From positions 2,602 through 66,601 of the forward strand of contig CAZOVH010000002.1 in NCBI GenBank assembly GCA_964583675.1: a DNA stretch of 64,000 nt, read 5' to 3'. Origin of the DNA: an uncultured Candidatus Saccharibacteria bacterium. Lineage in GTDB: Bacteria; Patescibacteriota; Saccharimonadia; CAILAD01; GCA-016700035. The notes beneath the pieces are model-generated. The model ran no database searches and was not told where the DNA came from. It saw only the letters and a list, made by a program, of their open reading frames with translations. Below, in pieces: positions 41,988 through 56,689 of the stretch. The position numbers and the translations under genes were made by a program. Position 1 is the stretch's first letter, and every line of letters begins with the position of its first letter.

Positions 41988-43661
41988 ATGAGCAGCGAAG
42001 AAATCAACCAACAGCTCAATGAACACACTGTAGAAGCCAAAATTGCCGGGCCACTCGTCTTCACAATTGTAGTAATTATTCTGTTGGATTTTTTACTTGG
42101 TAAAACTTATTCCACCAATCCCTGGGTCATTGGCGGAATCCTGGCTGGCAGCTTACTCTTCTCGCTCAGTCATAGCATTCCGGCACTCAAATTTGTCAAA
42201 CGTCATGGAGTGTACCTCCTCCTGTATCACTTTCTCCTAGCCGCTTCCCTCATATTTATTGTGCCTACGCTATCTTACTACTTGCTTATCTGGACTATAT
42301 TGGCCTATTTAAGTGAGTATTACTACCAAGCGAAAGGCATATATGTAAGTCTTACTGGGCTACTTTTGACGATTGCTGCCGGTACCTGGTACCAATACAA
42401 GCCGGTAACGACCGACGAACTTTGGGGCGCCATCACCTGGTTTGTTGTGCTTTCAGTTATTATTCTTATGCTAAGTCGCGTCATGCTCGGTAATCGCACG
42501 AAAAGACTTGAGCTTTCTGAAAAAATTATTCATGCCGAATACGAACACGAACGCATGATCAACCTAATAAATAGCATGAGTGAAGCCGTGCTGGCTATGG
42601 ATGAAAAAGGCACAATCAATATCTATAACGCTGCGGCTATGGACCTTCTAGACACCAATGTGGAGCTGGCTGGGAAAAATATAGACGAGGTCGTACACTT
42701 GTATGATGCACAAAAGCACCCGATTAGTGCCCTGCAGATCTCGCAAGAAACTCGTTACCTGCAAAAGCGTTCTGATGTCTTTTTACACTTTGGCGAAAAT
42801 GATGAAGTCGCTCTCGAACTTAATATCAGTCGTACTTCTCTCCAATCGGCTCTTTCCAAGAAGCAAGGTTTCACTTTACTACTACGCGACATAACTCAAC
42901 AAAAGAGCTTGGATGAAGAGCGTGATGAATTTATCTCAGTGGTTAGCCATGAACTACGCACTCCAATTACTATTGCCGAAGCCAATGTGTCGATGGCCGA
43001 ACTTCTTGTTAAAAAGTCTGATAAGAAACCTGAAGAAGTGCACGCTGCCCTTGATAAGGCTCACAAGCAAGTGCTTTTTCTGTCAGATATGGTTAATGAT
43101 CTCTCCACTCTCTCACGCGCAGAAAGAACCGATAAAGAGATGGAACTCGAAACCTTTGATATTGGAGATATTCTAACGGAGCTAGCCAGTACGTATCGCC
43201 CACAAGCTGAGGCAAAATCTTTGTATCTCAAACTAGATGCCGATCAAAACTTCCCCAAGGTTACCACTTCTCGCCTTTATTTAAAGGAAATTCTTCAAAA
43301 CTTCATCACTAACGCCATTAAATATACTCAAGCCGGGGGCATAACCGTAGTGGCCCATGGTGAGAATGGGCTCCTAAGGATTAGTGTTGCCGACACCGGT
43401 ATAGGTATTTCTAAGAGTGAACATGAGAAAGTTTTTGATAAATTCTGGCGTTCGGAAGATCCACTTACCCGCCAAACTGGCGGAACTGGTCTTGGGCTCT
43501 ACATTACGGCCAAGCTTGCTCGACGTATCGGTGCTCAAATAGATTTCCGAAGTGAACCAAAAAAAGGCTCCGTCTTTACCCTGAGCCTACCAGTCGTTGC
43601 GGTACAAGATATTGATAAAAAGAACGTCGTCAAGAAAGAGGTAGAAAATATACTCGACTAA
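41988..43661 (+). CDS. sensor histidine kinase (multi-TM N-domain, PAS-like, HisKA, HATPase_c)
   Basis: H-box SHELRTPITI, G-boxes DTGIGI and GGTGLGLYI. Confidence 0.85.
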   Translation: MSSEEINQQLNEHTVEAKIAGPLVFTIVVIILLDFLLGKTYSTNPWVIGGILAGSLLFSLSHSIPALKFVKRHGVYLLLYHFLLAASLIFIVPTLSYYLLIWTILAYLSEYYYQAKGIYVSLTGLLLTIAAGTWYQYKPVTTDELWGAITWFVVLSVIILMLSRVMLGNRTKRLELSEKIIHAEYEHERMINLINSMSEAVLAMDEKGTINIYNAAAMDLLDTNVELAGKNIDEVVHLYDAQKHPISALQISQETRYLQKRSDVFLHFGENDEVALELNISRTSLQSALSKKQGFTLLLRDITQQKSLDEERDEFISVVSHELRTPITIAEANVSMAELLVKKSDKKPEEVHAALDKAHKQVLFLSDMVNDLSTLSRAERTDKEMELETFDIGDILTELASTYRPQAEAKSLYLKLDADQNFPKVTTSRLYLKEILQNFITNAIKYTQAGGITVVAHGENGLLRISVADTGIGISKSEHEKVFDKFWRSEDPLTRQTGGTGLGLYITAKLARRIGAQIDFRSEPKKGSVFTLSLPVVAVQDIDKKNVVKKEVENILD

Positions 43662-44380
43662 GTCTTCTTGTCGGGCCGGATGAAGAATGTAATAGCCATA
43701 AATATACCTAAGAGTGAAATACCTACCATAAGCTGTATGGACTGTGCAATTGTCAAAACTCCATCGCTACCAGCGCTGCTGAATGGCAGTAAGCCAAGAA
43801 CGACAAATACGACGGCGAACATCACGCTTAGCACCCTCAGTCGAACTTTATCGCGCTGTATACTCACAGCCCTACTCTGACGCCAAAACGCGATCGACAA
43901 GAATAAACTGCTCATATACTGCAAAGATAGAACGCTTGTGTATACTCGAGAAACTGGGCTATACAATATGTATGTAGCTCCATCCTGCACTAGAGTTACC
44001 GGAATAAGCATCAAGTCTCGAAGCGCTAAATACGCCGCGGCTAGAGCAGCTACGACGCTTAATGAAACAATTACGCCGCGGGCAAAATCTGACTTAGGTG
44101 CATAGAGACGTGCAACTAACACCCAGAGCGTGACACCTGCAATCAGCTCAAAGAATGAACCAATCATCATCGCTAGCGTCAGAACTTTCGTGTTCTGTGT
44201 AATTACCGCTGGAAAGGCCGAAAGTGAGAGCGTAACCGTATAGCACACCACCGCGACACCCAAATACAGCGTAACTTTATTTTTAGTTTTCACATAGGAG
44301 CGAATGCTGGCAATTGCGAAGACAATAAATAGCGGGACTGCTAAAAGCGCATGAACATAATTCGCTGGAAAATTACTCAC
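43658..44380 (-). CDS. hypothetical polytopic membrane protein (paralog of 44377..45102)
   Basis: ~7 TM; shares VAR(L/I)Y(A/F)P motif and overall topology with neighbour. Confidence 0.5.
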   Translation of the reverse strand: MSNFPANYVHALLAVPLFIVFAIASIRSYVKTKNKVTLYLGVAVVCYTVTLSLSAFPAVITQNTKVLTLAMMIGSFFELIAGVTLWVLVARLYAPKSDFARGVIVSLSVVAALAAAYLALRDLMLIPVTLVQDGATYILYSPVSRVYTSVLSLQYMSSLFLSIAFWRQSRAVSIQRDKVRLRVLSVMFAVVFVVLGLLPFSSAGSDGVLTIAQSIQLMVGISLLGIFMAITFFIRPDKKT

Positions 44381-45102
44381 GCAGCTCCTTGTCTTCTACG
44401 CTGCAGCCAAAATGCTGAGAATAAGAACACAACGCCAAGCAAGAAGGCGGCTGCCAAGACGTAAGAAGTGCTGTTAAGGTTCGCACTAAAATCAAAAATA
44501 GGCCTTAAGACATAAAGTCCACCAACTATCAAAAACAAGATTGCTAACACAAATAATCGAATTTTTTTTGCAACGTCCTGAGTTCCCCACCCTTGTGCAA
44601 GAAAGCGAGCAGCAATCAAGGGTAAACTAAGATATTGAACCGCTGTAACGAGCTGATACCCTCGAGAAAAAGCAAACTCTATCTGCCAGGCCCCATTAAC
44701 ATACTGCATAATTACTGGGTTTGCCAGATTTTCCTGAACGGAAAACCACATGCCGATACAAATAACAATTGCATCCAGGGCCGCGACAACATACATAACA
44801 CCCTTGCGGTCTGGGAAATAGATACGAGCGACAGCCAACCAGATCCAGAACAACGCCAGAAATTGCAGAGCATCACCAATAATAGTAGCATACGTAAGCA
44901 GTATGCTTGTCTCAGGAACGACTAGTGGAGTAATTCCGTAGAAAACTAGTGAAAAAAAGAATGTGATGGCACTTAGACCAAAAAAAGTGTTCAGTAGATT
45001 AGGTCCACTTTTTTGAGACTGAAAGCTCTTATATGCCACAAAGGCTAAAAGTGGCAAAGCTACATACCAATGTATTGCATTAAGCGGAAGACGCATCTGC
45101 AT
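44377..45102 (-). CDS. hypothetical polytopic membrane protein (paralog of 43658..44380)
   Basis: Tandem paralog, 4-nt overlap with downstream gene. Confidence 0.5.
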   Translation of the reverse strand: MQMRLPLNAIHWYVALPLLAFVAYKSFQSQKSGPNLLNTFFGLSAITFFFSLVFYGITPLVVPETSILLTYATIIGDALQFLALFWIWLAVARIYFPDRKGVMYVVAALDAIVICIGMWFSVQENLANPVIMQYVNGAWQIEFAFSRGYQLVTAVQYLSLPLIAARFLAQGWGTQDVAKKIRLFVLAILFLIVGGLYVLRPIFDFSANLNSTSYVLAAAFLLGVVFLFSAFWLQRRRQGAA

Positions 45103-45133: not shown

Positions 45134-45209
45134 TGGAGCCCGCGAAGGGACTCGAACCCATAACCTACGGTTTACAAAACCGTTGCTCTACCAATTGAGC
45201 TACGCGGGC
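45134..45209 (-). tRNA. tRNA-Thr (anticodon UGU)
   Basis: Reverse complement folds: acceptor GCCCGCG/CGCGGGC, D-arm GCTCAATTGGTAGAGC, anticodon stem ACGGT/ACCGT loop TTTGTAA, T-loop TTCGAGT (one U-U mismatch in T-stem), CCA encoded. Confidence 0.75.
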
Positions 45210-45572
45210 TGGTGCAGCATCCTAGCCGAAGTTAGAACTTTGCTACTCAACTATTCTATAACCTAACCTGATATGGCGCAACAGATTATTTGTACCCCCT
45301 ACCCTTTCCTATATATTGAATGATATCTTTCAATTACCATTATCCTATATCGGTAAAGTAGACTAGCTTATTGTGTATGTTTTTATATGTAGTTGTGCTA
45401 AGTAGCCACTTTCATATTTTGTTATGTTTTGTTAGGTTTTTTGAGGTTATATGTGCCATACGTAATTGAGGATATTAATAATCAAAATAGATTGAAGATT
45501 AGAACTATATTCAAACTTGAAAGGTAGGTTGATAACAAGACTATCAATCATATCGCTATTCTAAAAGATACC

Positions 45573-45794
45573 TTACCTCTTAGAATTTTTTAGGGCATTT
45601 ATTTGCTTCTGCAAGCTTTCTAGCTCTTCTTTAATATTTTCAATATCATCCTCTATACTTTCCTGGTCACCACCAAGCAACCTGACTGCCTCCTCTAGCT
45701 TTACGTCTGCTCGTGCATTATTAGTGAGGTTTTGATCAGTTTTATATAGCCAAATAACCAATAAAACGATTACTACTGCCAATACGAACTCCAT
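45573..45794 (-). CDS. hypothetical small membrane-anchored coiled-coil protein (island cargo)
   Basis: N-terminal TM LAVVIVLLVIWLY then acidic coiled coil. Confidence 0.4.
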   Translation of the reverse strand: MEFVLAVVIVLLVIWLYKTDQNLTNNARADVKLEEAVRLLGGDQESIEDDIENIKEELESLQKQINALKNSKR

Positions 45795-45894
45795 TTAAAA
45801 CTCCTTTTTATTATGGGTACCTAATTGTAATCATCACTACTCAAACCTCATCCGTTGGTCAACTTCCATCTATATAATAACTACAGAGCCGTAG

Positions 45895-46461
45895 CTACAG
45901 TGCACTCTCCATAACTTTTAGCATTTCCTGCTGCTGGGTCGCAGTATAGTTGCTAGATACACGCAAAACTACATTACCATTCACCTTATAAGCGCCTGCA
46001 CTAATTGCCCCTGTCTGGAATTGTTCAAGATATTCACCCCTTGTTGCTGCATCTGCCCCAGAAGCAAATACTTCTATTGTGCCACCAGCATCTGTCCCAT
46101 AATTATCCTTACTGATGTCTATTTGGTTTCCATTCTCGTCGACAGGCTGATAGCCAGTACGTGTGTCATAGAAGCTCCCAGCGTATTGATACTCACCCTT
46201 TTTACCAAGTAAGTTGTTTGAGTCTGTAGCCTCAGTTACAACATAAACAGATTGAACTGTTGGGGTTTCAGCTTTTACTTTATCTAATACATCTTGTACT
46301 AATTCATTACCAGTCTTATTTTCTGCCTCGTTTTGAGTTTGATCTGTAGTTACAGAGCGAGGTTGCACGCTATTATTATTTGTATTGAAGTAGTACATCC
46401 CCGCGACCGCAGCTACAACTACCACCAAAACTACCACGCCTACTAGTACTTTCTTATTCAT
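45895..46461 (-). CDS. hypothetical secreted/membrane-anchored protein (island cargo)
   Basis: N-terminal TM/signal anchor VLVGVVVLVVVVAAVAGMYYF; Thr/Asn/Gly-rich ectodomain. Confidence 0.5.
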   Translation of the reverse strand: MNKKVLVGVVVLVVVVAAVAGMYYFNTNNNSVQPRSVTTDQTQNEAENKTGNELVQDVLDKVKAETPTVQSVYVVTEATDSNNLLGKKGEYQYAGSFYDTRTGYQPVDENGNQIDISKDNYGTDAGGTIEVFASGADAATRGEYLEQFQTGAISAGAYKVNGNVVLRVSSNYTATQQQEMLKVMESAL

Positions 46462-46562
46462 ACAACACTCCTATAATTTACAATTTCATTGCTTACTCTA
46501 TCATGCATGATTTTCTTTTCAAATATCTACTGCATTCTAATCACCAATATACTAAGGTCGAA

Positions 46563-47240
46563 TTAATATGACTCACAGCCATATCCATCTCCATCTCTAT
46601 CAAAGCGATGCTTATCGACACCGATAACAGTTACGCTGAAACCAATGTCTCCACAATCGAGATCGTATGAAACATTCGGGACACAGGGACTGTAGTTTGG
46701 ATCACAATTTCCCGCTGGTACTTGAGCTTTGGGCTGTGTCGCTGGCTGCTGGGTAACTGGGGCTGGCGGTGCTTGAGGAGTAGGAGTTGCAGCTGGCGTT
46801 ACTACAGCTGCAACCTTAGTACCCTTAGCAATACGCTTTACCGAGGGCTGCTCTACAATGACCTCACCTACTCTTTCTTTTTCTTCTTCAACTCCACCCG
46901 ATATTAGTACTCTATATGTAACTGCTTTCTTCCCTTCACGACCTTCCTGTAAAACTTTCGTTGTGCCTTCTTCTAGGTTCGAGTCATCTACTGTTTCAGT
47001 CGCATATCCAACTGTCTCGAAATCTGTATATTCCTTAAAACTATCTGGAGAAGACCCTGCGAACATACCTAGATAGAAAAGCATCATGATGGCAGACAAT
47101 ACGCTCAACGATACTTTTTGCCAAGTTGGCCGCAAAGACACGATCCATAAATACCAGAGAATAAATGGCGGGAAAAAGACGATCGCAGCTATGAACCCTG
47201 CAGGTCGTAAGTACCAAGGTCTTTTACTTTGAGCGTTCAT
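46563..47240 (-). CDS. membrane protein with G5 domain and C-terminal Excalibur calcium-binding domain
   Basis: Two N-terminal TM; G5-like LEEGTTKVLQEGREGKKAVTYRVL...VKRIAKGTK; Pro-rich linker; Excalibur motif DRDGDGYGCE. Confidence 0.55.
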   Translation of the reverse strand: MNAQSKRPWYLRPAGFIAAIVFFPPFILWYLWIVSLRPTWQKVSLSVLSAIMMLFYLGMFAGSSPDSFKEYTDFETVGYATETVDDSNLEEGTTKVLQEGREGKKAVTYRVLISGGVEEEKERVGEVIVEQPSVKRIAKGTKVAAVVTPAATPTPQAPPAPVTQQPATQPKAQVPAGNCDPNYSPCVPNVSYDLDCGDIGFSVTVIGVDKHRFDRDGDGYGCESY

Positions 47241-47953
47241 CTATCTACCTTTCCGTTACAGGTGTTTGCAGCCCAAAGCCCTCTAGTAGCATCTTTTGCC
47301 TGTTGCTCCAAGCTTATAAAATCATTTAGCTTAGCAGTAGGATATTTTCTGTACGCAAAAGCATAACCTTCCTCGACCATTACTGCATTGACTAAAGTTC
47401 CATCGGCTAGATATACATACCGCAACAAGCGACCGTATTTGTCTTTATCGCCCTGGCTCTCATCTACTACCAATACAACTGGCTTACCCTCTACGAGCTC
47501 TTTCATCTTGCGAGAAGCTTCAAACCCATAGCACTGCACTGGCTTCCGAGGATCTTTTGTCTCTGGAGTGTCGATTCCTAGCAACCTAACCTTATAGGTT
47601 ACGCCATCTGAGACCACTGTTATCGTGTCGCCATCCACAACGTTTTTGACGACCGCAGAAGAATCGGGCAGAGACTGATCAATTATCGCCTTGTCCTGCT
47701 TCTCTAAGACTTGGCTACTTGCCTCTTTCTCTAGACTAGCTATAGGTTGAGATGATATGGATTTATCATCTGGGGTTTCATATTCATCAGGGTCAGTAGT
47801 AAGAGAGCTGGCGTACAGTTGATTCATTTGAGCAACTTCTCTGGGTTGAAGCACAAAACTATACCATATGGTGTATAGTGTCATAACTAATATTAAGTGA
47901 AATACCAACATTAGCCATATTGTTGCTTTATGCTTTTTCCGACCTCGTGCCAT
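47237..47953 (-). CDS. membrane-anchored thermonuclease (staphylococcal nuclease homolog)
   Basis: N-terminal TM; SNase core VVDGDTITV...VRLLGIDTPE and downstream Arg/Glu/Tyr catalytic region. Confidence 0.75.
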   Translation of the reverse strand: MARGRKKHKATIWLMLVFHLILVMTLYTIWYSFVLQPREVAQMNQLYASSLTTDPDEYETPDDKSISSQPIASLEKEASSQVLEKQDKAIIDQSLPDSSAVVKNVVDGDTITVVSDGVTYKVRLLGIDTPETKDPRKPVQCYGFEASRKMKELVEGKPVVLVVDESQGDKDKYGRLLRYVYLADGTLVNAVMVEEGYAFAYRKYPTAKLNDFISLEQQAKDATRGLWAANTCNGKVDR

Positions 47954-48096
47954 TAATTGAATTCTACCCCTATATACTCAAATCGTATACTAAATGCGTT
48001 ATTGGTATAGCCACCCGCAGTTAAAGATACTCCTTCCGCTCCGCTTATATATAGACTGGAGGAGTAGCTATTAAGAGCTGCTGTGACGGGGGGTGT

Positions 48097-48582
48097 TCAT
48101 CTGCAGGTAGTTGTCCAGCCCCCAAACGGATTATAGGTGGAGTTACAGGTTGTGGACGGTACAGGTGATGGACTAGGCAAGGGTTGTAGTTGTAATGGAG
48201 CCGTGTAACTCGGTTGGGCTTGAGAAGTGCTGGTTGGTTTAGTGTTTGCATCATTTAGTAGCTGCCAGTAACCCTTCTTAAGGTCGGCCAGCTCCGTACC
48301 ATATTTGGCAATTAAATTATTCCTAGCATCCACTGTCTTTATTAATTGTTCGTTCTCCGCTGTCGCCTTTTCTTTTTCCGCAGTTATCTTAGATAGCTGG
48401 TCCAGTCCAGTCTTCTGGAGTCTGACAGTGTATACCGATAAACCCAACAAAGATACTAGTAATACATAAAAGCCGATCTGGTAAAATTTTGTTGTCCTGC
48501 TAGATTTTCTGGGATCCGAATTCCTTTTCAGCTCGGCAACTTCCGCCTCAAGTTTTTCAATATTTACTCGTTGGCCCTTCAT
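48097..48582 (-). CDS. hypothetical membrane protein with flanking coiled coils and Pro/Ser/Thr-rich Cys-pair tail
   Basis: Central TM FYQIGFYVLLVSLLGLSVYTV; heptad-rich segments; tail TTCNSTYNPFGGWTTTCR. Confidence 0.45.
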   Translation of the reverse strand: MKGQRVNIEKLEAEVAELKRNSDPRKSSRTTKFYQIGFYVLLVSLLGLSVYTVRLQKTGLDQLSKITAEKEKATAENEQLIKTVDARNNLIAKYGTELADLKKGYWQLLNDANTKPTSTSQAQPSYTAPLQLQPLPSPSPVPSTTCNSTYNPFGGWTTTCR

Positions 48583-48657
48583 AGCGCGTTCTCTCTAGTG
48601 CTTGATAAATGTAAATAAAAAATATTGGATATATACGACATTCGCATATGAACACTG

Positions 48658-49263
48658 CTACTCATCCAGCGACTCACTCAGCTTTTTTAACCCTTTTTTA
48701 TAGTATTTCATTTGGGTGTCTTGTGGCAGTTTTTGAATATCATCATCAGAGATATTAATTTTATTCACCTCTCGAAATCCTAGGCGAATAACGCTCATCT
48801 TCGCTAGGTCTTCATCGTTATGCGGACCGCTTTCTGTAGCAGTATTTTTCTTATCTATCAAGCCAGTCGAAGAGTTGCTAATACGACTCTTTGGCATCTT
48901 GGCTAACTGCTTGTTTTTATTGTAATACGCTACCCAACTAAGTAATGGCAATACCCAAATCGAGAAGCCACCCAAAAGAAATAAAATCATATTTGCTATT
49001 GCTGCAATGTTCTCCATCAGAGCTCGTGAATCAGCTGATTCACTACTATTTTGACCAAGTATAAAGTTGATTAGAGCATACAGTGCCACTGTAAGGCCAA
49101 ACATTATAAAAGGAGACCACAACCACCTATACATGCTGGTTACGAGCCTCTTTCTATCGGGTTGCATCTTAGAGAGTTGGCCAGCCGTGAAAGCCAGCTG
49201 AAACAATAAGAATATGTTTACGAAGAGCGCAACTATAATCATGGGGAAAGAGGAGTTTTCCAT
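48658..49263 (-). CDS. hypothetical multi-TM protein, short member of island paralog family (single C-terminal KLGF..VN..DI.K.P...KYY..GL repeat)
   Basis: N-terminal membrane domain and C-terminal repeat both align to 50565..51647. Confidence 0.5.
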   Translation of the reverse strand: MENSSFPMIIVALFVNIFLLFQLAFTAGQLSKMQPDRKRLVTSMYRWLWSPFIMFGLTVALYALINFILGQNSSESADSRALMENIAAIANMILFLLGGFSIWVLPLLSWVAYYNKNKQLAKMPKSRISNSSTGLIDKKNTATESGPHNDEDLAKMSVIRLGFREVNKINISDDDIQKLPQDTQMKYYKKGLKKLSESLDE

Positions 49264-49323
49264 GCACTGAATTATACACCACCAAGATCTAAGCGCTGAA
49301 TGCTATCTATCTACAAACAGCTT

Positions 49324-49677
49324 TCACTTGTTGATCTTTTTGCGATACTCGATTTGGTGATATAAAGCTACCAGAGTATAAAAAAACCCACCGATAAGGA
49401 AAGCGAAGCCGCCTGCCCAGAAAAATGAGATTACAATTGCAATTGCAAAAGCACTTAATCCAACCTTCAATTCCCTATTAGCTTTTTCCTTAATTAATGA
49501 AGGATTATCCGTTTCTTCTTTTTTCGTTTCATTGGTGACAATACTAATATACTCAAGGGCCTTCTCTTTTGATCCAGCCTGTTTCTTAATTGCTCTGACT
49601 ATGCTTCCTTTTGAATAAAACTGTGATTTTAAACTTTTTATTTTCTCTTCGATCTCTGGTGGCACTGATTGATTCAT
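49324..49677 (-). CDS. hypothetical protein with C-terminal double TM hairpin
   Basis: Soluble Lys/Glu-rich N-domain then GLSAFAIAIVISFFWAGGFAFLIGGFFYTLVALY. Confidence 0.4.
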   Translation of the reverse strand: MNQSVPPEIEEKIKSLKSQFYSKGSIVRAIKKQAGSKEKALEYISIVTNETKKEETDNPSLIKEKANRELKVGLSAFAIAIVISFFWAGGFAFLIGGFFYTLVALYHQIEYRKKINK

Positions 49678-49694
49678 GATGTAATCCTTACCTC

Positions 49695-50120
49695 CTATTC
49701 ACCCTTACGAAATGTAGAAAACTCACCCAGGTTTGCCAATATATCTCTATCTATCGATTCGATAAATGCACCGAACATCTTTTTATCATATCCGTAGTAT
49801 TCAGACTCTACTACCAACGTAAGGTCCTCAGGGTCACCATCATCCTTTGACTCTTCATAAAACCATTTACTATATACTGCTTGATTAACCGTATTTATTG
49901 CATTAAAAAAATCTTTACTTCCTAGCGCCTTAGGGTTGAAGCCCGACCATCTCATCGTGACAGTAAGCATATCGCCATTAAAATTTAATAGATAGGAAGC
50001 TCCACGGTCTCGCTCAGCAAAATACAATGATCCTTTATTTTTGCCTATATCTTCGGTTTCAAAACCTAAAAACTCCATGTGTTCAAGAATCTTGTCTTTG
50101 TTGCTTGCCTTATCTGTCAT
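49695..50120 (-). CDS. hypothetical cytoplasmic protein (weak YbjN-like resemblance)
   Basis: Only soluble protein in cassette; start chosen at MTDKA to avoid overlap; family call tentative. Confidence 0.35.
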   Translation of the reverse strand: MTDKASNKDKILEHMEFLGFETEDIGKNKGSLYFAERDRGASYLLNFNGDMLTVTMRWSGFNPKALGSKDFFNAINTVNQAVYSKWFYEESKDDGDPEDLTLVVESEYYGYDKKMFGAFIESIDRDILANLGEFSTFRKGE

Positions 50121-50568
50121 TACCTTGTCCTTTCTTAATCGTGTCCCAGTCACGCAATTTTTCACTTGGGCGGATAGTTTTTAGATTATCATTTTTTACA
50201 GCTTCGGAAGAGTGCTTTTTGCTGGACGCCTGAAAGTCATCTTGTCCCTCTAAATAATCTCTACGCTCGTCCCCTGCTAAATAACTTTCAATAGCCTCCG
50301 CCTTAAGCTTATTAACACTAAATATGATCATTATCCCCGCCCATAAGCTACCATACATGAACGTAGTAGAAAATGCAGAAACGACTATTAGTACAAGGCT
50401 AGACCATACAATTGGGACTATAATAACTGGCCAATTCATTTTTTTTATCTCCCCCGTTCTAAGAAGTTTCCTTCTAAGGGGCAGTGTTGCAAATATACTT
50501 CCCAATATATTTGACCATAAGAATAAACCGACGACCCAACCAATAAAACCTATTAATAGACCTGTCAC
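50110..50568 (-). CDS. hypothetical membrane protein (3-4 TM) with charged C-terminal tail
   Basis: ORF with hydrophobic N-terminal two-thirds. Confidence 0.4.
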   Translation of the reverse strand: MTGLLIGFIGWVVGLFLWSNILGSIFATLPLRRKLLRTGEIKKMNWPVIIVPIVWSSLVLIVVSAFSTTFMYGSLWAGIMIIFSVNKLKAEAIESYLAGDERRDYLEGQDDFQASSKKHSSEAVKNDNLKTIRPSEKLRDWDTIKKGQGNDR

Positions 50569-51647
50569 TTCAGCATCCTCAATCCAGCTTGATAATATTT
50601 ATCTAGTTCCTTTTCTGGCATTTTTTCGATATCTTCAGTAGCTACAGAAAAATTATTCACATGCTTAAATCCCAGTTTAATTATTTCTAGCTTTACCCGT
50701 AACTCATCTCCACTGATCTTTTCTTCATTTGTCGGGCTTAGCGCGTGTTTTCTATAGTTACTAACCCTCATGCCTTCTTCCAGGTATGATTCTAGCTCTC
50801 TCTTGGAAAGATTTTCTAATACCTCTGGAAAAACATTCTTTACATTGTGACGATGCGAATAACCGCGCCTAATTAGCATTTCCTTCTCATCCACTGTCAA
50901 GCCTGCAGCCGCTGCCCTATCCAGCTTAGCTACTCTCTTTTCAAGAGCTGAGGCATCCAATTTTTTGATTTTATGAACTGAGTGTATGGCAATTATCGTC
51001 CACACTAAAACTATCAAGGGTATAATTCCTCCCGAAACTAGAATTGTAGACATTAACAAAATCCACAGTTTCGCTAGCAAGAATTGATTATTGCTGCGAA
51101 TTGAACGTCCAAGCATTATGAAGTAGGTTCCTAGAAGCAAGATAATAATAAATGCAACTAAATAGCTCGGCAAATCACCCCCTTCAGGACCTGAAAGCAA
51201 CAATAACCCTGACGATATAATAATTATTGCAAACCCCATTTGATAACTTCCATCTCCCGCCCGAGTTATCAAACGTAAATAACGCTCCACCTTTTTTTCT
51301 TCTGGTGATAATGCCCTTATAGGCTGTTTCAAGGGCTCATTCAGTTCACGTAGTGCCTGGTAGGTTACATACCAGCTATAAAACGGCAATATAAATGCCG
51401 CTATGAAGCCCAGGAGAAACAGTATTGTGTTCAGAATTGTGCTGATGTTCGCACCCAAATCACTATCAGCATCAATGACCGCATTGGTGAAGCCATATAA
51501 TAACAAGCAAGACAAAACGATAATTATTGGAAGCCAAAGCCAGAAGTAAGCCTTTTTCAATCGTTTTCGCTGAATTGGGTTTTTCTTCTTCTGTACTAAA
51601 GACCTAAACTCTAGAACTACAAGGATTATCAGATTTATTAAAAACAT
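50565..51647 (-). CDS. hypothetical multi-TM protein, long member of island paralog family (two copies of C-terminal ~35-aa repeat)
   Basis: RKRLKKAYFWLWLPIII... aligns with 48658..49263 N-domain; repeats GYSHRHNVKNVFPEVLENLSKRELESYLEEG and GFKHVNNFSVATEDIEKMPEKELDKYYQAGL. Confidence 0.5.
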   Translation of the reverse strand: MFLINLIILVVLEFRSLVQKKKNPIQRKRLKKAYFWLWLPIIIVLSCLLLYGFTNAVIDADSDLGANISTILNTILFLLGFIAAFILPFYSWYVTYQALRELNEPLKQPIRALSPEEKKVERYLRLITRAGDGSYQMGFAIIIISSGLLLLSGPEGGDLPSYLVAFIIILLLGTYFIMLGRSIRSNNQFLLAKLWILLMSTILVSGGIIPLIVLVWTIIAIHSVHKIKKLDASALEKRVAKLDRAAAAGLTVDEKEMLIRRGYSHRHNVKNVFPEVLENLSKRELESYLEEGMRVSNYRKHALSPTNEEKISGDELRVKLEIIKLGFKHVNNFSVATEDIEKMPEKELDKYYQAGLRMLK

Positions 51648-51749
51648 TCTAGTTATTCCTACATCTAACTATATACCCAGTAAACCAAGCATACAATTAT
51701 ACTTGATATGGTGTTAAGACCAGCCTTAAGCTGATATCATTGCTTCGAG

Positions 51750-52340
51750 ATGACTCCACAGCCCAATAAACAGTATATGCCAAGCTTAAAGTACAGGAGC
51801 GATTGGCACAGGTATTTGGTCTTCAATGACCCCGAGTTTATTAATGCTTATAATTCGATTGATCAAGACGATAAGCAAAGTATGTATCAGAAATCTTGTG
51901 CATTCGAGCTGCTTGCCAGATCTTTCGCACTCACGACTTCCGATATGAACATTTTTAAATTATCTAAATCTATATACATAGAGGGTAAAACCACGGGAGC
52001 TAACTTAGAGTTTGATCCGATGTCTGGAAAGTATTCAATTGTTTTTCAGCCAGATACTCCTCTAGTCGAAATACAGGATGAGCTAAACAAATTTAAAAAC
52101 TTGAGAGACTCACTCTTCCCGATTAAGCAAACTAAGCGAAAGCCACCACACGACCCTGCACTTATATATGCCATCTTCAAAGCTCGGCAACAAAAGCTAA
52201 CTTTCAATAAAATTTTCGAGCTATATGAGAACAGCACACTGCCCTACTATGGCGGCGACAATCAAAAGTATCAGAGCCGTGAAGATCTCGAGAAGTACTA
52301 CGACAACAATAAGCCAATAAGAACTTTAAACAAATCTTAG
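51750..52340 (+). CDS. hypothetical protein (196 aa), first plus-strand gene of island replication/integration module
   Basis: Clean ORF, Lys/Tyr-rich, no family recognised. Confidence 0.4.
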   Translation: MTPQPNKQYMPSLKYRSDWHRYLVFNDPEFINAYNSIDQDDKQSMYQKSCAFELLARSFALTTSDMNIFKLSKSIYIEGKTTGANLEFDPMSGKYSIVFQPDTPLVEIQDELNKFKNLRDSLFPIKQTKRKPPHDPALIYAIFKARQQKLTFNKIFELYENSTLPYYGGDNQKYQSREDLEKYYDNNKPIRTLNKS

Positions 52341-52478
52341 ATTGGTTATACAACTAGTTTTCCACCTGCTTTAATGGCATCTGAGATGACATTGGTAGTC
52401 CCCTGAGAAATAGTCATCTCCTCGGGGGACTACCTATTAACAATAGGTATCAGACGTAGCCTAGCCACGGGGAAAGCT

Positions 52479-52688
52479 ATGAAACTTAGCGATGATAATA
52501 TCACTCAGCTTCAACACATACTGAAAAGCCAAAACGATATTGATGCAACCGACTTGGAGGCTCAGCAAATTGGCCTGGCAGTAATGCGCTTCGTGTTAGC
52601 CAAGCATCTAAATACTTTCAAGGATACCTCGGAGGAAAAGAGAGATGAAAATAACGCCGTTGAGCATCCTACAAAGCCAACATATTGA
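52479..52688 (+). CDS. hypothetical small acidic protein (69 aa) overlapping start of primase gene
   Basis: ORF only; could be regulator/excisionase-like, unverified. Confidence 0.25.
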   Translation: MKLSDDNITQLQHILKSQNDIDATDLEAQQIGLAVMRFVLAKHLNTFKDTSEEKRDENNAVEHPTKPTY

Positions 52689-54765
52689 GTACCAAGAAAT
52701 ACAAAACGAGTTAGTCATTAAATGTCAGTTTAGTGATTGCGACGATGACAGTAGGGGCAAAGAAGCTCATATGTATGTAAATAAAGATTCAGGCGCATAC
52801 TACTGTCATAAGTGCTATGCAAAGGGCGGCTTGCAAGATCTATTGGAGCACTTCGGTATAGATGCTAAATCCATTGGGAGTGATCCTAAGAATGACCTGA
52901 AACAAACCGCAATCAAATACCACCTCGGCCTGCCTCCGTATATAAAAGATTACTTAGTGAAAGATAGGCTTCTTCATGATGAAGAGATCAATGATCGATT
53001 ACTTGGTTTTATGGTAGACCAATCTGGAGTTGGCTGGATTACCATTCCTGTGTTTAGTCAGCATAACGATATATTATTCATCAAAATGAGAAAAGACCCA
53101 TCGTTGCCCAATTCCATTAGCCCCAAATATAAGTCGTCTGGTGGATCAGCAGCCATATATAATGCGCAAATCATCAATGATCAGCCAGAACGACTAGTTA
53201 TCTGTGAGGGTGAATTTGACTGCATGCTTTTGTCATCCCTTGGCGTTCCAGCGATTAGCTCAACTGCTGGCGCAGGTACCTTTAAGGATCAGTGGGTAGA
53301 CCAACTGTCATTCGTACGTGAGTTCTATGTAATTATGGATAATGATGACCCAGGAAGAAAAGGAGCTGAAGCCTTAATTCAGAAGCTACATGCAGCGCAT
53401 CCCGACGCATCGATTATGAACGTCCAGTTGCCGTCCGTTTTAGGGAAAGGTGGAGATATTACTGACTTCATCAAGCATGAACTTGGAGATATCGATGATT
53501 TACTCAGTCCAGATAGTAAGCTTGTGAGTCTCGCAGCTGGATCAAGACCGATTAACCCCTCCTCTTTTAGTGAAATGAGTCTAGATGAGCTAGTTGAGAT
53601 ATTATCCATGACTATCAAATTCGATCGAGAAAACAAACTTATAACTTTTTTCGCATGCCTATCAGCTTACACCCTCTCAGATCAGATCAATGTTAGCTAT
53701 AACGCACCAAGCTCATCGGGCAAAACATATATCGTCAACGAAGTGGCTAAACTATTTCCAGATGCCGATAAAATCGAATCAAATGGTGCAAGCCCAACTT
53801 CCTTTTTCCACGGTTCAGGCAAAATCGATGAGAAAAGAAATGCAAAAATCATTAACCTCTCTCGGAAAATCCTTATCTTCTACGAACTCCCAAACCCAAT
53901 ACTGCAATCTAAACTGCGATCCGTTTTATCCCATGACAGCTGGGAGATAAATCACCGTATTACCAATAAAGACAAAAAGGGTGCCCATCGAGTCGAACAT
54001 ATAATTCTTGAGGGCTTCCCTGCCACTATATTTTGCTCTGCCAATATGCGGCTAGACGAACAAGAAGCAACCAGAGCAATACTCTTAAGCCCTGAAGTAA
54101 GCCAGGAGAAGTTGAGCGAAGCTGTGCATCTACAAGCTCTAAAAGCCGCAAACCCCGAAAAGTACCATACAGACCTTGACTCCGATCCAAGACGGAAGTT
54201 ACTTAAAGATCGCATACTCGCGATCAAGCGTGAGCGAGTAGATCATGTAACTCTAAACCCCTCAAGTACTAGAGAAATAGAAAAACGTTTTATGGCGAGC
54301 TTCCATAGATTTAAGCCAAGACACATGAGAGATGTTGGGCATTTGATACAACTCATTAAAGCTATTACCCTACTGAATATTTGGCACAGACAAGATTCTG
54401 ATGGGAAAATTGTCGTGTCACAAATAGACATTGAACAGGGATTAAACCTTTGGATGCACTATCGAGAAAGCCAGGATCTTAATATTAGCCCTATTGCCAC
54501 CTCATTCTACAAGCAATATATATTACCAGCATATTTAGAAAAACGTGGAGACAATTATGAGTTCAGTGAAGGTGTCACACGGCAAGAAGTATGTAAATAC
54601 TATCTCAAAATTGAGCGCGCTCCATACAACGATGAGTACCTAAGAAAACAAATCCTGCCCCAGCTTGAGAATAGCGGACTAGTATCGCAAGAACAGCCGC
54701 AGAGCGGCGATAAGCGTACAAAGCACATCATTCCTAAGTGGTTCTTCCGCGATGAAGATATATAG
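52645..54765 (+). CDS. DnaG-type primase (CHC2 zinc finger + TOPRIM) fused to C-terminal P-loop NTPase domain (replication initiator of the element)
   Basis: Zinc finger CQFSDC...YYCHKCYAKGG; TOPRIM LVICEGEFD and IMDNDDPGRKG; Walker A NAPSSSGKTYIV in C-terminal half. Confidence 0.7.
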   Translation: MKITPLSILQSQHIEYQEIQNELVIKCQFSDCDDDSRGKEAHMYVNKDSGAYYCHKCYAKGGLQDLLEHFGIDAKSIGSDPKNDLKQTAIKYHLGLPPYIKDYLVKDRLLHDEEINDRLLGFMVDQSGVGWITIPVFSQHNDILFIKMRKDPSLPNSISPKYKSSGGSAAIYNAQIINDQPERLVICEGEFDCMLLSSLGVPAISSTAGAGTFKDQWVDQLSFVREFYVIMDNDDPGRKGAEALIQKLHAAHPDASIMNVQLPSVLGKGGDITDFIKHELGDIDDLLSPDSKLVSLAAGSRPINPSSFSEMSLDELVEILSMTIKFDRENKLITFFACLSAYTLSDQINVSYNAPSSSGKTYIVNEVAKLFPDADKIESNGASPTSFFHGSGKIDEKRNAKIINLSRKILIFYELPNPILQSKLRSVLSHDSWEINHRITNKDKKGAHRVEHIILEGFPATIFCSANMRLDEQEATRAILLSPEVSQEKLSEAVHLQALKAANPEKYHTDLDSDPRRKLLKDRILAIKRERVDHVTLNPSSTREIEKRFMASFHRFKPRHMRDVGHLIQLIKAITLLNIWHRQDSDGKIVVSQIDIEQGLNLWMHYRESQDLNISPIATSFYKQYILPAYLEKRGDNYEFSEGVTRQEVCKYYLKIERAPYNDEYLRKQILPQLENSGLVSQEQPQSGDKRTKHIIPKWFFRDEDI

Positions 54766-54948
54766 GAATGCATGGTGGGTACCCTTACCGAAAGATAAAT
54801 AAACGGATATAATGGCTATGTTGAAACACCCAGTAATTATGCGTGAAGTCTTTTTATTTCCGCTCGTTAAGGGCGGCTTGGTACGGAAAGTGGCTTTGTG
54901 CTACTGGATGTTTCAACAGCCGAGCCGTCCTTTTTGATTGGAGAAATT

Positions 54949-56586
54949 ATGAGTAATTTAAAGTATATCGCTTATGTACGCAAGTCTACCGAAGATGAAG
55001 AACGGCAAGTTCTATCCAGAGCTGCTCAACGAGACAAGATTAATGAAATATTCGGCGAACTTACTATAATTGACTACCTCGATGAGAGTAAAAGTGCGTT
55101 TGAGCCAGGGAAAAGGCCTATTTTTGATCAAGTTTTGGCCAAGTTAGATTCTGGCGAAGCTGATGGGATAATTGCTTGGCATCCAGATCGACTTTCACGA
55201 AACGCCATAGATGCTGCTGCCATAAGCCATCGTATTAGCAAAGGAACAATTAAGGATCTGAAGTTCGCGAGCTTCAGCTTTGACAACTCACCAGAAGGCA
55301 TCATGATGCTTCAGATGACGATGTCTCAATCTCAATACTTTTCAGCAAAGCTGAGTAAAGATATTAGACGAGGCAATGAAAAAAAGCGTCAGCTAGGTGG
55401 CTTAACAGGAAAAGCTATGGAGGGCTACCTGAATGATCGCATGAATAAGACAACCATTATTGATCCAGCTCGATTCCCGTTAATCCGTAAGGCGTTTGAC
55501 CTATATTTAACTGGAGAATATAGCGTCCAAGCAATTCTACGTATACTCAATGATGAATGGGGCTATACGACCCTTAAGCGAAAAAGGACTGGAGGGGGCC
55601 CACTCTCTCGAACATCTCTATACAATATATTTCGAAACGTGCGATACGCTGGACTAATACCAGACCCTTACGACCCAGAAAAGCTGTATAAATCTGAGTA
55701 TCCAGCAATGATTACGATTGAAGAGTATGACCAAGTTCAGCTACTGCTAGGTAGAAAAGGACTTCCTCGATTGGTAGCAAAGAAAGAATTTGCACTACGT
55801 GGGCTAATTCGCTGTGGTGAATGTGGATGCAGCATTACCGCTCAAACCAAAAAGAAGAAAATGAAGTGCGGGACGATAAAGCCTTATACGTACTATCATT
55901 GTACTGGTAAACGACCTGGCTGCAGCCAAAAAAGTATATATGTAAGAGAAGAGCAGCTATATAAGGAGCTGACAATTCTACTAGATAAATATCAGCTAGA
56001 CGAACGTCTATTTGACTGGGCCCTAGAGGCCTTTAAGGATATGGCGGCAGCTGAAGTGACTGAAAGAAATCATGTGCAATTGATACAGGACAATAAAATC
56101 CATGATACTCAACGTCAACTGGATAAACTGCTAGATTTAGCAACCAAAGAACTTATAACTACTGAAGAATATTCACTGAAAAGCGAACAGTTGAAAGCAG
56201 CACTAAATACACTTCAGAAAGATCAAACAAATACTGCAGCCCGCACTAAGAACTGGTATGAGTTTGCTACAAATACCCTACACACACTCTGCGATGCTGA
56301 AAATAGGTTCATTAACGGAGATATAGTGGTAAAGAAAGAAATACTACTGGCTATTGGTCAGAACCCTACCTTATTGGATGGAAAATTGCATATCACACCA
56401 GTAAAATGGTTGAATCCAGTCGCAAACTCAACTGAGCATATTACAAAGGAGCTTAATAAGGTTAGAACCTTATCTCTACAGATGCAAAAAGCCTCCGAAG
56501 AGGCTGTTCGTCATCAATGGTGCAGGGGGAGGGATTCGAACCCCCGAAGGCATAAAGCCGACAGATTTACAGTCTGTTGCGTTTGA
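54949..56586 (+). CDS. large serine recombinase (resolvase/invertase catalytic domain + recombinase domain + zinc ribbon)
   Basis: N-terminal YVRKSTEDEERQ with catalytic Ser, DGIIAWHPDRLSRN; Cys4 CGECGC...CTGKRPGC; SD GGAG 7 nt before ATG at 54949; 3' end overlaps tRNA-Tyr on opposite strand. Confidence 0.8.
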   Translation: MSNLKYIAYVRKSTEDEERQVLSRAAQRDKINEIFGELTIIDYLDESKSAFEPGKRPIFDQVLAKLDSGEADGIIAWHPDRLSRNAIDAAAISHRISKGTIKDLKFASFSFDNSPEGIMMLQMTMSQSQYFSAKLSKDIRRGNEKKRQLGGLTGKAMEGYLNDRMNKTTIIDPARFPLIRKAFDLYLTGEYSVQAILRILNDEWGYTTLKRKRTGGGPLSRTSLYNIFRNVRYAGLIPDPYDPEKLYKSEYPAMITIEEYDQVQLLLGRKGLPRLVAKKEFALRGLIRCGECGCSITAQTKKKKMKCGTIKPYTYYHCTGKRPGCSQKSIYVREEQLYKELTILLDKYQLDERLFDWALEAFKDMAAAEVTERNHVQLIQDNKIHDTQRQLDKLLDLATKELITTEEYSLKSEQLKAALNTLQKDQTNTAARTKNWYEFATNTLHTLCDAENRFINGDIVVKKEILLAIGQNPTLLDGKLHITPVKWLNPVANSTEHITKELNKVRTLSLQMQKASEEAVRHQWCRGRDSNPRRHKADRFTVCCV

Positions 56587-56604
56587 CCGCTTCGCTACCC
56601 CTGC
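56518..56604 (-). tRNA. tRNA-Tyr (anticodon GUA), type II with long variable arm
   Basis: Reverse complement: acceptor GCAGGGG/CCCCTGC, anticodon loop CTGTAAA, long variable arm CGGCTTTATGCCTTCG, T-loop TTCGAAT, CCA encoded. Confidence 0.85.
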
Positions 56605-56614
56605 ATGCTTGATC

Positions 56615-56689
56615 TGGAGCCCAAACCGAGGATTGAACTCGGGACCTCTTCCTTACCATGGAAGCGCTCTACCACTGAGCTATTTGGGC
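56615..56689 (-). tRNA. tRNA-Thr (anticodon GGU)
   Basis: Reverse complement: acceptor GCCCAAA/TTTGGGC, D-arm GCTCAGTGGTAGAGC, anticodon stem CTTCC/GGAAG loop ATGGTAA, T-arm CCGAG-TTCAATC-CTCGG, CCA encoded. Confidence 0.85.

Follow-up and report, generated by a model that had tools for sequence, protein, structure and literature searches.

We analyzed a 64,000-nucleotide stretch of DNA from an uncultured Candidatus Saccharibacteria bacterium (contig CAZOVH010000002.1), here called the window, and in it a minus-strand gene cassette at 45573-51647 that is part of an integrated island of 11.3 kb. The cassette consists of 10 consecutive genes, whose products are, in order, 360, 152, 141, 117, 201, 161, 238, 225, 188, and 73 amino acids (aa) long. 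We refer to the genes and their products as g360, g152, and so on, except for the 238-aa protein, a staphylococcal nuclease homologue (SNase), and the 225-aa protein, which has a G5 domain. Two of the starts have alternatives: an upstream GTG would lengthen g141 to 156 aa, and the second ATG would shorten g201 to 194 aa. An earlier reading of the locus, made from the letters and their reading frames (the sequence-only reading), had described a unidirectional run of eleven genes. Gene calls bore out the run and its single direction, and independent calls on an identical public contig again gave 10 genes, not eleven. The sole candidate for another is a 69-aa open reading frame (ORF) at 48045-48254, which is nested within the g161 gene and was reported by no caller.

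From g360 to g73, the intergenic spacings are -4, -11, 17, 60, 75, 143, -4, 101, and 100 nucleotides (nt), and Shine-Dalgarno-like motifs lie ahead of most cassette starts. The suggestion of one operon stands in part. There are overlaps, and we found no terminator-like sites on the minus strand within the run, but the gaps of 60 to 143 nt would accommodate internal promoters, so a single operon is possible. When compared with natural variants, all cassette genes with an estimable synonymous rate had pairwise ratios of nonsynonymous to synonymous substitution rates (dN/dS) of 0.04 to 0.26. The values for g152 and g360 were 0.24 to 0.26 and did not indicate positive selection. Synonymous differences have reached saturation in g141 and g117, where the proportion of nonsynonymous differences (pN) is about 0.2 against a proportion of synonymous differences (pS) of about 0.8. 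Because dN/dS is low against natural variants, we conclude that all ten genes are real and under purifying selection.

Hydropathy predicts transmembrane (TM) segments in nine of the ten proteins, g141 being the sole soluble one, which agrees with the earlier view that nearly all of the products are membrane proteins. The gene order recurs in other genomes, where it is identical in every full copy of the cassette. An all-against-all comparison of the cassette proteins found one paralogous pair only, g360/g201. Scans of the 10 proteins with PHROGs, NCBIfam, and PADLOC gave SNase and weak coiled-coil or low-complexity matches, and nothing else. As had been anticipated, g161, g117, g152, and g73 have no recognizable family and give only weak coiled-coil-type matches, and coiled-coil membrane proteins are indeed among the products (the tail of g73 and the external coiled coil of g161). 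By homology searching, six of the ten proteins are lineage-restricted orphans.

The cassette lies in a region of distinct base composition, with a G+C content of 0.39 to 0.42 over 44-56 kb versus 0.46 to 0.49 elsewhere in the window. The limits of the island came from an empty site. A scan of metagenomes of the Joint Genome Institute (JGI) with the neighboring TPR protein as query yielded one contig (L090; L numbers are our handles for loci) from the same species, with flanks 99.1% (right) and 96.5% (left) identical to the window. It joins window position 56518 directly to 45217, and everything between is absent. An 8-nt direct repeat, CTGCACCA, which forms the final 8 nt of tRNA-Tyr, is present at both island junctions and occurs within 44-58 kb only at 45210 and 56518. 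Because the 8-mer stands at both junctions and L090 lacks what lies between, the insertion extends from about 45210 to 56517 and comprises the cassette and a recombinase/primase backbone together. In L090 (1298-1545), tRNA-Thr(GGU), tRNA-Tyr, and tRNA-Thr(UGU) follow in series, and the last two abut with zero spacer. The island sits precisely between these two, with the last 8 nt of tRNA-Tyr duplicated. The empty site thus upholds the proposal that the cassette is mobile-element cargo. The features of the island and its borders are collected in Table 1.

Table 1. Features of the integrated island and its borders, in window coordinates
Feature	Position	Strand	Basis or remark
Integrated island, ~11.3 kb, backbone and 10-gene cassette	45210..56517	.	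Missing from same-species L090; G+C dip
tRNA-Thr(UGU), displaced 11.3 kb, downstream of cassette	45134..45209	-	Abuts tRNA-Tyr in empty site
Left copy of CTGCACCA, island/tRNA-Thr(UGU) junction	45210..45217	-	Junction sequences
Non-coding island end	45218..45572	-	Alignment of island variants
g73, predicted N-terminal TM helix and coiled-coil tail	45573..45794	-	dN/dS 0.2
g188, predicted signal-anchored extracellular alpha/beta domain, replaceable slot	45895..46461	-	Widespread family without Pfam entry
G5 protein, 225 aa	46563..47240	-	2 predicted TM, G5 domain, Pro/Thr linker, Cys-rich Excalibur-type Ca2+ module
Membrane-tethered staphylococcal-nuclease homologue (SNase), 238 aa	47237..47953	-	Pfam, hydropathy; stop overlaps G5 gene start (ATGA)
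g161, predicted bitopic, external coiled coil, Pro/Ser/Thr-rich stretch, C-terminal Cys loop	48097..48582	-	Hydropathy
g201, short paralogue of g360	48658..49263	-	E = 2e-14 and 6e-9
g117, predicted cytoplasmic helical N terminus and C-terminal TM hairpin, block A	49324..49677	-	60% aa identity between alleles
g141, predicted soluble, acidic, block A	49695..50120	-	Secretion-chaperone/YbjN-like fold in model
g152, predicted polytopic, hydrophilic tail, block A	50110..50568	-	Hydropathy; 54% aa identity between alleles
g360, predicted 6-TM, ~130-aa cytoplasmic tail, first cassette gene	50565..51647	-	Hydropathy
g196, no family	51750..52340	+	Divergent from cassette; 96% conserved among island copies
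g69	52479..52688	+	Matches L058 (1e-7) and L060 (2.7e-6)
Zn-finger/Toprim primase, P-loop C-terminal part, 706 aa, replication protein	52645..54765	+	Pfam; 48-58% identical relatives
Large serine recombinase, 562 aa	54898..56586	+	Resolvase, Recombinase, and Zn_ribbon_recom
Right copy of CTGCACCA, tRNA-Tyr 3′ end, attachment (att) core	56518..56525	-	Junction sequences
tRNA-Tyr(GUA), integration target	56518..56604	-	Recombinase ORF 3′ end runs antisense through it

Long att repeats around the island were sought and dismissed. The direct repeats found were at chance level, and the real core of 8 nt was found via the empty site only. An exact-protein look-up with the host flank gene returned only contigs broken at the tRNA, and all retrieved contigs are collinear with the integrated form of the island. 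Three contigs from independent assemblies (L001, L010, and L011; 11.35-11.51 kb) span almost exactly the island and break in or beside the flanking tRNA genes. We set aside a circular form as their source; they probably reflect assembly-graph branching at conserved tRNAs or a polymorphism of occupied and empty sites.

As seen at window 45134-45209 and 56518-56689, integration moves tRNA-Thr(UGU) 11.3 kb away from the upstream tRNAs, and the cassette is transcribed toward it. A terminator-like hairpin, GCCTCTTCGGAGGCTTTTT, follows tRNA-Tyr inside the island. The expression of tRNA-Thr(UGU) may now depend on the island. At the non-coding island end, the last ~270 nt are conserved above the level of the coding genes among island variants (the equivalents in L010 and L004 were aligned). 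This end carries a tandem twofold repeat of CCTAACAAAA and, some 45 nt ahead of tRNA-Thr(UGU), a TAGAAT box; it matched no Rfam family. Its role may be that of an att arm, a replication origin, or a promoter for the displaced tRNA-Thr.

Relatives of the primase and of the recombinase occur in other Saccharibacteria, in elements that likewise end in tRNA-Tyr and repeat the antisense overlap of recombinase and tRNA-Tyr (L060 and L061). The N-terminal part of the primase is similar to actinophage primase/helicases. Besides these two genes, g69 is the only small gene common to the related elements. A second 8-mer in L060, 13.3 kb from tRNA-Tyr, was not used as an island end, a single 8-mer in 22 kb not being significant. 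On the divergent side, related backbones carry unrelated cargo (L058, L059, and L060), and a phmmer search against all ORFs of 66 loci found no cassette homologues in the related loci. L059 (27-8201) has four large defense-like genes, one of which has an N terminus that by eye resembles a DUF262-type motif; L058 (2007-8867) has a 977-aa membrane protein and a protein with an N terminus that looks TIR-like, again by eye; and the cargo of L060 is made up of other small membrane proteins. Another Saccharibacteria serine-recombinase island, L082 (8620-14245), contains HpaII restriction-modification genes, Vsr, and an AAA_13 ATPase. A serine integrase, a tRNA 3′-end target, and variable cargo make the element, in its logic, typical of small integrative islands. 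That Patescibacteria commonly have genomic islands is known (PMC12455944). We found no description of this element family or of the cassette in the literature.

We then compared island copies with their host flanks. The copies are 90 to 97% identical while the flanks are 75 to 88% identical. Between L008 and L009, the island is 97.4% identical and the flanks 74%; in another host, the island is 90 to 97% identical to the window and the ribosomal-protein operon only 73%. Because island identity is far above that of the flanks, the island moves between species. At least three diverged host backgrounds carry it, and one strain of the same species lacks it. In four copies (L003-L006; 4 samples), the whole cassette is kept and 51715-56445 is lost, which takes away g196 and g69 as well as the primase and recombinase genes. 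Also retained are the left end of the island and, from the 3′ end of the recombinase, 72 nt; at the L003 junction (102/109), window position 56446 is joined to 51714. Near the ends of the deletion there is a short imperfect repeat, TTGTAATATGCTCAGTT / TTGTATGCTTGGTT. Their host flanks are 65 to 72% identical to the window, and we read them as backbone-deleted derivatives in a third host. They first led us to suspect that the backbone alone (51715-56445) was a 4.7-kb mobile unit, which was ruled out by L090, where the whole 11.3 kb is missing. That the cassette is intact in the backbone-deleted copies argues for a benefit to the cell that is independent of transfer.

These copies also bear on the possibility that the cassette is a transmission module of a capsid-less element, akin to plasmaviruses, pleolipoviruses, or plasmid vesicles, whose membrane proteins would build or decorate infectious vesicles carrying the 11-kb replicon. 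An 11.3-kb element with its own replication protein, an integrase, and nine membrane proteins would fit this picture, as would its spread across species and the lack of capsid, terminase, relaxase, and DNA translocase matches in scans of the island proteins. However, transmission genes would not be expected to stay intact and under purifying selection where recombinase and primase have been lost. There was no match to a virion or vesicle protein and no large spike-like protein, scans of IMG/VR with g360 and g161 found no relatives, and elements with the same backbone carry defense-like or other cargo. We consider vesicle transmission the least credible of the explanations weighed here. Readings of the cassette as virion genes or as a lysis cassette were rejected as well: none of the matches was to a structural, muralytic, or holin family, and the cassette persists where the backbone is lost.

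Divergence from other copies is very uneven along the cassette. The stretch g201-g161-SNase-G5 of the window is 94.6 to 99.0% identical to other copies at the nt level, with a pS of 0.006 to 0.25. In contrast, g152-g141-g117 is 68 to 69% identical at the nt level and 54 to 69% at the aa level, with pS at a saturated 0.65 to 0.84. We saw only two haplotypes of this block, and that of the window is the rare one (singleton clusters). The g360 gene is about 85% identical at the nt level, with a variable central TM region and visible recombinant alleles. In place of g188, L003 encodes an unrelated anchored Cys-rich protein of 133 aa and keeps only a 74-nt remnant of g188. By this comparison, recombination has made the cassette a mosaic, with at least three envelope-protein parts that can be exchanged independently of one another. 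Sub-module A, g360-g152-g141-g117, is predicted to be translationally coupled and exists as two deeply diverged allelic blocks. Sub-module B, g201-g161-SNase-G5/Excalibur, is nearly invariant and is the best conserved and most widely shared part of the cassette. Sub-module C is the replaceable g188 slot plus g73.

The sequence-only reading had seen here one coherent, undescribed surface module. In that view, all ten proteins form a novel surface machine encoded by a single operon and serving epibiont-host interaction, DNA scavenging, or surface exclusion. The unidirectional genes with their short spacings, the two 4-nt overlaps, the lack of an internal minus-strand terminator-like site, and the gene order kept in all full copies are what such a machine would show. 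The mosaic speaks against it: the saturated block and the near-identical g201-G5 stretch have differing histories, and one member, g188, has been exchanged for an unrelated gene. Moreover, homologues of g188 and of SNase-Excalibur stand alone elsewhere, both types being ordinary for mobile elements, and related backbones lack all of the cassette genes. The claim of a coherent novel module did not hold up, and a single machine is quite improbable. Most of the cassette is as expected of accessory genes of integrated elements.

The membrane-tethered staphylococcal nuclease named in that reading is secure. SNase matches PF00565 with 94.1 bits (cut-off, 21 bits; E = 9e-27). By hydropathy, it is predicted to have a TM anchor at its N terminus, flanked by positive charges on the N side, and then come a linker and the SNase domain. 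Its match to the NCBIfam thermonuclease NucI (E = 9.8e-28) is below the equivalog cut-off. Residues D21, R35, D40, T41, E43, Y85, and R87 of the Staphylococcus aureus nuclease are all conserved; D21, D40, T41, R35, E43, and R87 align to D109, D128, T129, R123, E131, and R175. The G5 domain predicted for the neighboring protein was likewise found (PF07501, 61.7 bits against a 23-bit cut-off; E = 7.9e-17) and aligns to the G5 of IgA1 protease. For the Excalibur module, the evidence is divided. The DxDxDGxxCE loop is present as DRDGDGYGCE and the segment is homologous to accepted members, but the score with PF05901 is 17.1 bits, under the gathering score of 22 bits, and only profile positions 23-36 match.

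The 49-aa C terminus of the G5 protein is 44 to 60% identical to the C termini of "thermonuclease family" SNase-Excalibur proteins, and it matched 31 plasmid records (Thermus, Nostoc, and others). One of these proteins, WP_223969404 of Thermus thermophilus pAA1-1c (L091), has SNase at residues 48-167 and Excalibur at 215-227 (22.2 bits, which passes the cut-off). The window SNase aligns with the N-terminal part of this protein (6e-12) and the window G5 protein with the C-terminal part (6e-15), with 57% identity over 49 aa at the C termini. Thermonucleases with SNase and Excalibur fused are found repeatedly on plasmids of Nostoc and of Thermus, many of the latter being about 19 to 23 kb long. 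This type of nuclease is therefore a common passenger of mobile DNA. Because of the fusion/fission link and the ATGA overlap, SNase and the G5/Excalibur protein are most likely one surface nuclease in a split, two-gene, translationally coupled form. The fusion link and the conserved active site suggest that the pair acts as a Ca2+-dependent nuclease on the outer face of the membrane, where it would digest DNA or RNA.

What would such a nuclease be good for? Saccharibacteria are naturally competent (via ComEC) and are without de novo nucleotide synthesis (PMC10633639). Nutrient salvage could thus be the main role: the SNase/Excalibur pair, perhaps with membrane proteins for uptake or retention, would break down nucleic acid from the environment or from the host and so feed a nucleotide-auxotrophic epibiont, and the island would spread via better growth. 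In keeping with this, the nuclease has an intact active site and a predicted outward orientation, it belongs to the most conserved and most widely shared sub-module, and the cassette was kept after the mobility genes were lost. Yet the empty site tells us that the species can do without the island, and profile scans of the 10 cassette proteins detected no transporter, nucleotidase, or phosphatase families. Salvage also leaves the allelic block A unexplained, and it overlaps with the explanation that we favor below rather than excluding it. As the main role, we regard it as possible, if rather unlikely.

The g188 protein is, by homology, a member of a large, unnamed surface-domain family. A confident structure model has a PknH-sensor/TiME-like fold, and elsewhere the domain is fused with Ltp, DUF5067, DUF6591, PG_binding_1, or LRR modules. 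The family profile matched nothing among PDB sequences and Pfam, and no significant hit came from searching viral models by fold. In two of four contexts, homologues are found at the margins of other Saccharibacteria recombinase islands, and eleven Streptococcus phage satellites also have them. In Javan21, a g188-type membrane-anchored gene lies between the integrase and a cI-like repressor, an interval that is the usual site of lysogenic-conversion genes. L084 and L085, from different samples, have the same Saccharibacteria genes beside a g188-like gene. A segment of about 6 kb (methyltransferase, HD, kinase, GDSL lipase, and others; ~8.6-16 kb of L084), which lies beside a serine recombinase, is in opposite orientation in these two loci, suggesting recombinase-mediated inversion. 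The same island also holds an RVT_1 reverse transcriptase gene.

Sub-module A had a very restricted distribution in our searches. Among 5.8 billion proteins, g360 has 3 clusters only, the search for g141 homologues also gave 3 clusters only, and block A has no homologues beyond a handful of near-identical islands. The paralogues g360 and g201 have in common a TM bundle at the N terminus and a cytoplasmic motif at the C terminus. The earlier description of the sole soluble protein as weakly YbjN-like stands as to solubility. As to YbjN, g141 had no Pfam YbjN match at E <= 0.1 and no PDB sequence match, and the likeness comes from a low-confidence model (predicted local distance difference test [pLDDT], 58) with fold similarity to secretion chaperones and YbjN. 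A weak match of g161 to an Rz-like spanin (phrog_13, E = 0.0011) made it a candidate i-spanin, which we rejected; scans of the cassette revealed neither an endolysin nor a holin family nor a lipoprotein partner. Probably, g360-g152-g141-g117 form one membrane complex with a cytoplasmic chaperone-like adaptor, and a specificity determinant is suggested by its two alleles, which are deeply diverged and inherited as a block. The block might even be an undescribed membrane-embedded specificity system, for example for exclusion/defense or partner recognition, with the alleles as different specificities; we put this forward as a doubtful proposition.

The same alleles could be taken as the mark of a competition or attack module aimed at the actinobacterial host or at rival epibionts, with block A as cognate immunity or recognition. 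Two deeply diverged, co-inherited alleles are found in toxin/immunity or recognition loci, the fold of the low-confidence g141 model is that of effector-holding secretion chaperones, and the g188 fold resembles actinobacterial envelope sensor domains. However, profile scans of the 10 cassette proteins detected no secretion system, toxin domain, or immunity family. SNase is tethered, not released, and it lies in the conserved rather than the polymorphic part; g152 and g360, moreover, show no sign of positive selection. We hold an attack module to be very improbable.

On balance, we lean toward the view that the cassette is envelope cargo of the lysogenic-conversion type, carried by a site-specific integrative element and centered on a surface DNase, which serves in the exclusion of foreign DNA and/or in nucleotide salvage. 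The cargo would remodel the envelope of the carrier cell, in the manner of prophage lysogenic-conversion genes. The surface nuclease would destroy ambient or incoming DNA and so limit curing of the island and superinfection by rival elements, and it would also release nucleotides for a host unable to synthesize them. A role as surface or exclusion factors would fall to g188 and the small anchored proteins. Periplasmic or secreted DNases of mobile elements that destroy transforming DNA have been described: IdeA and SxnA of Vibrio integrative and conjugative elements and Dns of Campylobacter (PMC12378983). Given this precedent, and since the host is competent and nucleotide-auxotrophic, a surface DNase encoded by the island would both protect the island and release nucleotides.

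Several points weigh against this interpretation. The link to IdeA and Dns, which are not known as SNase-family proteins, is an analogy only. No cassette protein matches a known defense or exclusion family, and six of the ten offer no functional clue. Membrane topology was derived from hydropathy alone, and the secretion-chaperone/YbjN-like fold of g141 comes from the model with a pLDDT of 58. Homologues of g188 are also found in two ordinary chromosomal loci. As an Ltp-type superinfection exclusion lipoprotein, g188 was rejected: the Ltp domain PF07553 was not matched in it, and it has no Cys and hence no lipobox. To our knowledge, exclusion activity of the g188-type domain has never been demonstrated. 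Finally, PADLOC proposed the candidate C3a212 (SNc+LTD) for SNase, but only the SNase part of the profile is matched (positions 39-182 of 279), and Pfam found no lamin-tail domain (LTD) in the protein; we rejected the assignment.

Mobile elements of Saccharibacteria and other ultra-small Candidate Phyla Radiation bacteria are poorly characterized, and there are few genetic tools for these organisms. The element described here, of 11.3 kb, is seen in occupied, empty, and backbone-deleted states, spreads across species, and has a precise 8-nt target at the 3′ end of tRNA-Tyr, which makes it a candidate chassis (serine integrase plus att site) for Saccharibacteria genetics. The SNase/Excalibur pair makes a testable case of carrier benefit, either by curbing natural transformation or by feeding a nucleotide auxotroph, and block A with its two deeply diverged alleles is a defined target for structure and interaction work. 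Current ideas are not overturned by these findings, and sub-module A could prove new. Outside the island, at window 43658-45102, there are two adjacent paralogous polytopic membrane proteins of 240 and 241 aa (mutual E = 1.5e-20) beside a PAS histidine kinase. They are only 41 to 46% identical between related hosts and had no family match save a sub-threshold 7TMR-DISM_7TM on the 240-aa protein (E = 0.009).

How does the element compare with known systems? Like serine-recombinase integrative islands and mobilizable elements, it has the same integrase domain set, precise insertion at the 3′ end of tRNA-Tyr with a short core, an empty site, a G+C content below that of its host, and cargo that varies among relatives. 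Unlike them, it has a phage-type primase-helicase and no relaxase, conjugation, capsid, or packaging genes, and its host is a Saccharibacterium. Phage satellites similar to phage-inducible chromosomal islands (PICI) also combine an integrase with a primase/replication module, in islands of 7 to 17 kb (here, 11.3 kb). They differ by their packaging and capsid-redirection genes: we found no PHROG or Pfam match to terS, cpm, or ppi-like genes in the 10 cassette genes and no Pfam match in the 4 backbone genes.

Among the cargo, the chaperone-like protein g141 compares by modeled fold with class I type III secretion chaperones and YbjN proteins (SycN, Spa15, and SicP; DR_1245 and AmyR). In contrast to these, it has no sequence match, there is no type III system, and its partner would be a neighboring membrane protein. 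The g188 ectodomain is shared, at 35 to 38% identity, with a Streptococcus satellite protein (Javan21), which places it near prophage and satellite exclusion proteins. The Ltp domain, known from Ltp of phage TP-J34, co-occurs with the g188-type domain in other proteins, whereas g188 itself is without the Ltp domain or a lipobox. IdeA/SxnA and Dns/CJE0566/CJE1441 belong to nuclease families other than SNase. Their likeness to the window SNase is functional only, in that an integrated element encodes an extracytoplasmic nuclease in a competent host (PMC12378983, PMC10633639). The closest counterparts of the nuclease pair are the plasmid SNase-Excalibur thermonucleases, with a homologous SNase domain and Cys-rich DxDxDGxxCE module, also on mobile DNA. 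Here, the two parts are encoded by adjacent, overlapping genes, each product has its own predicted membrane anchor, and the Ca2+ module is joined to a G5 domain and a Pro/Thr linker. By its sequence, then, the nuclease pair represents, in split form, an architecture that is common on plasmids.

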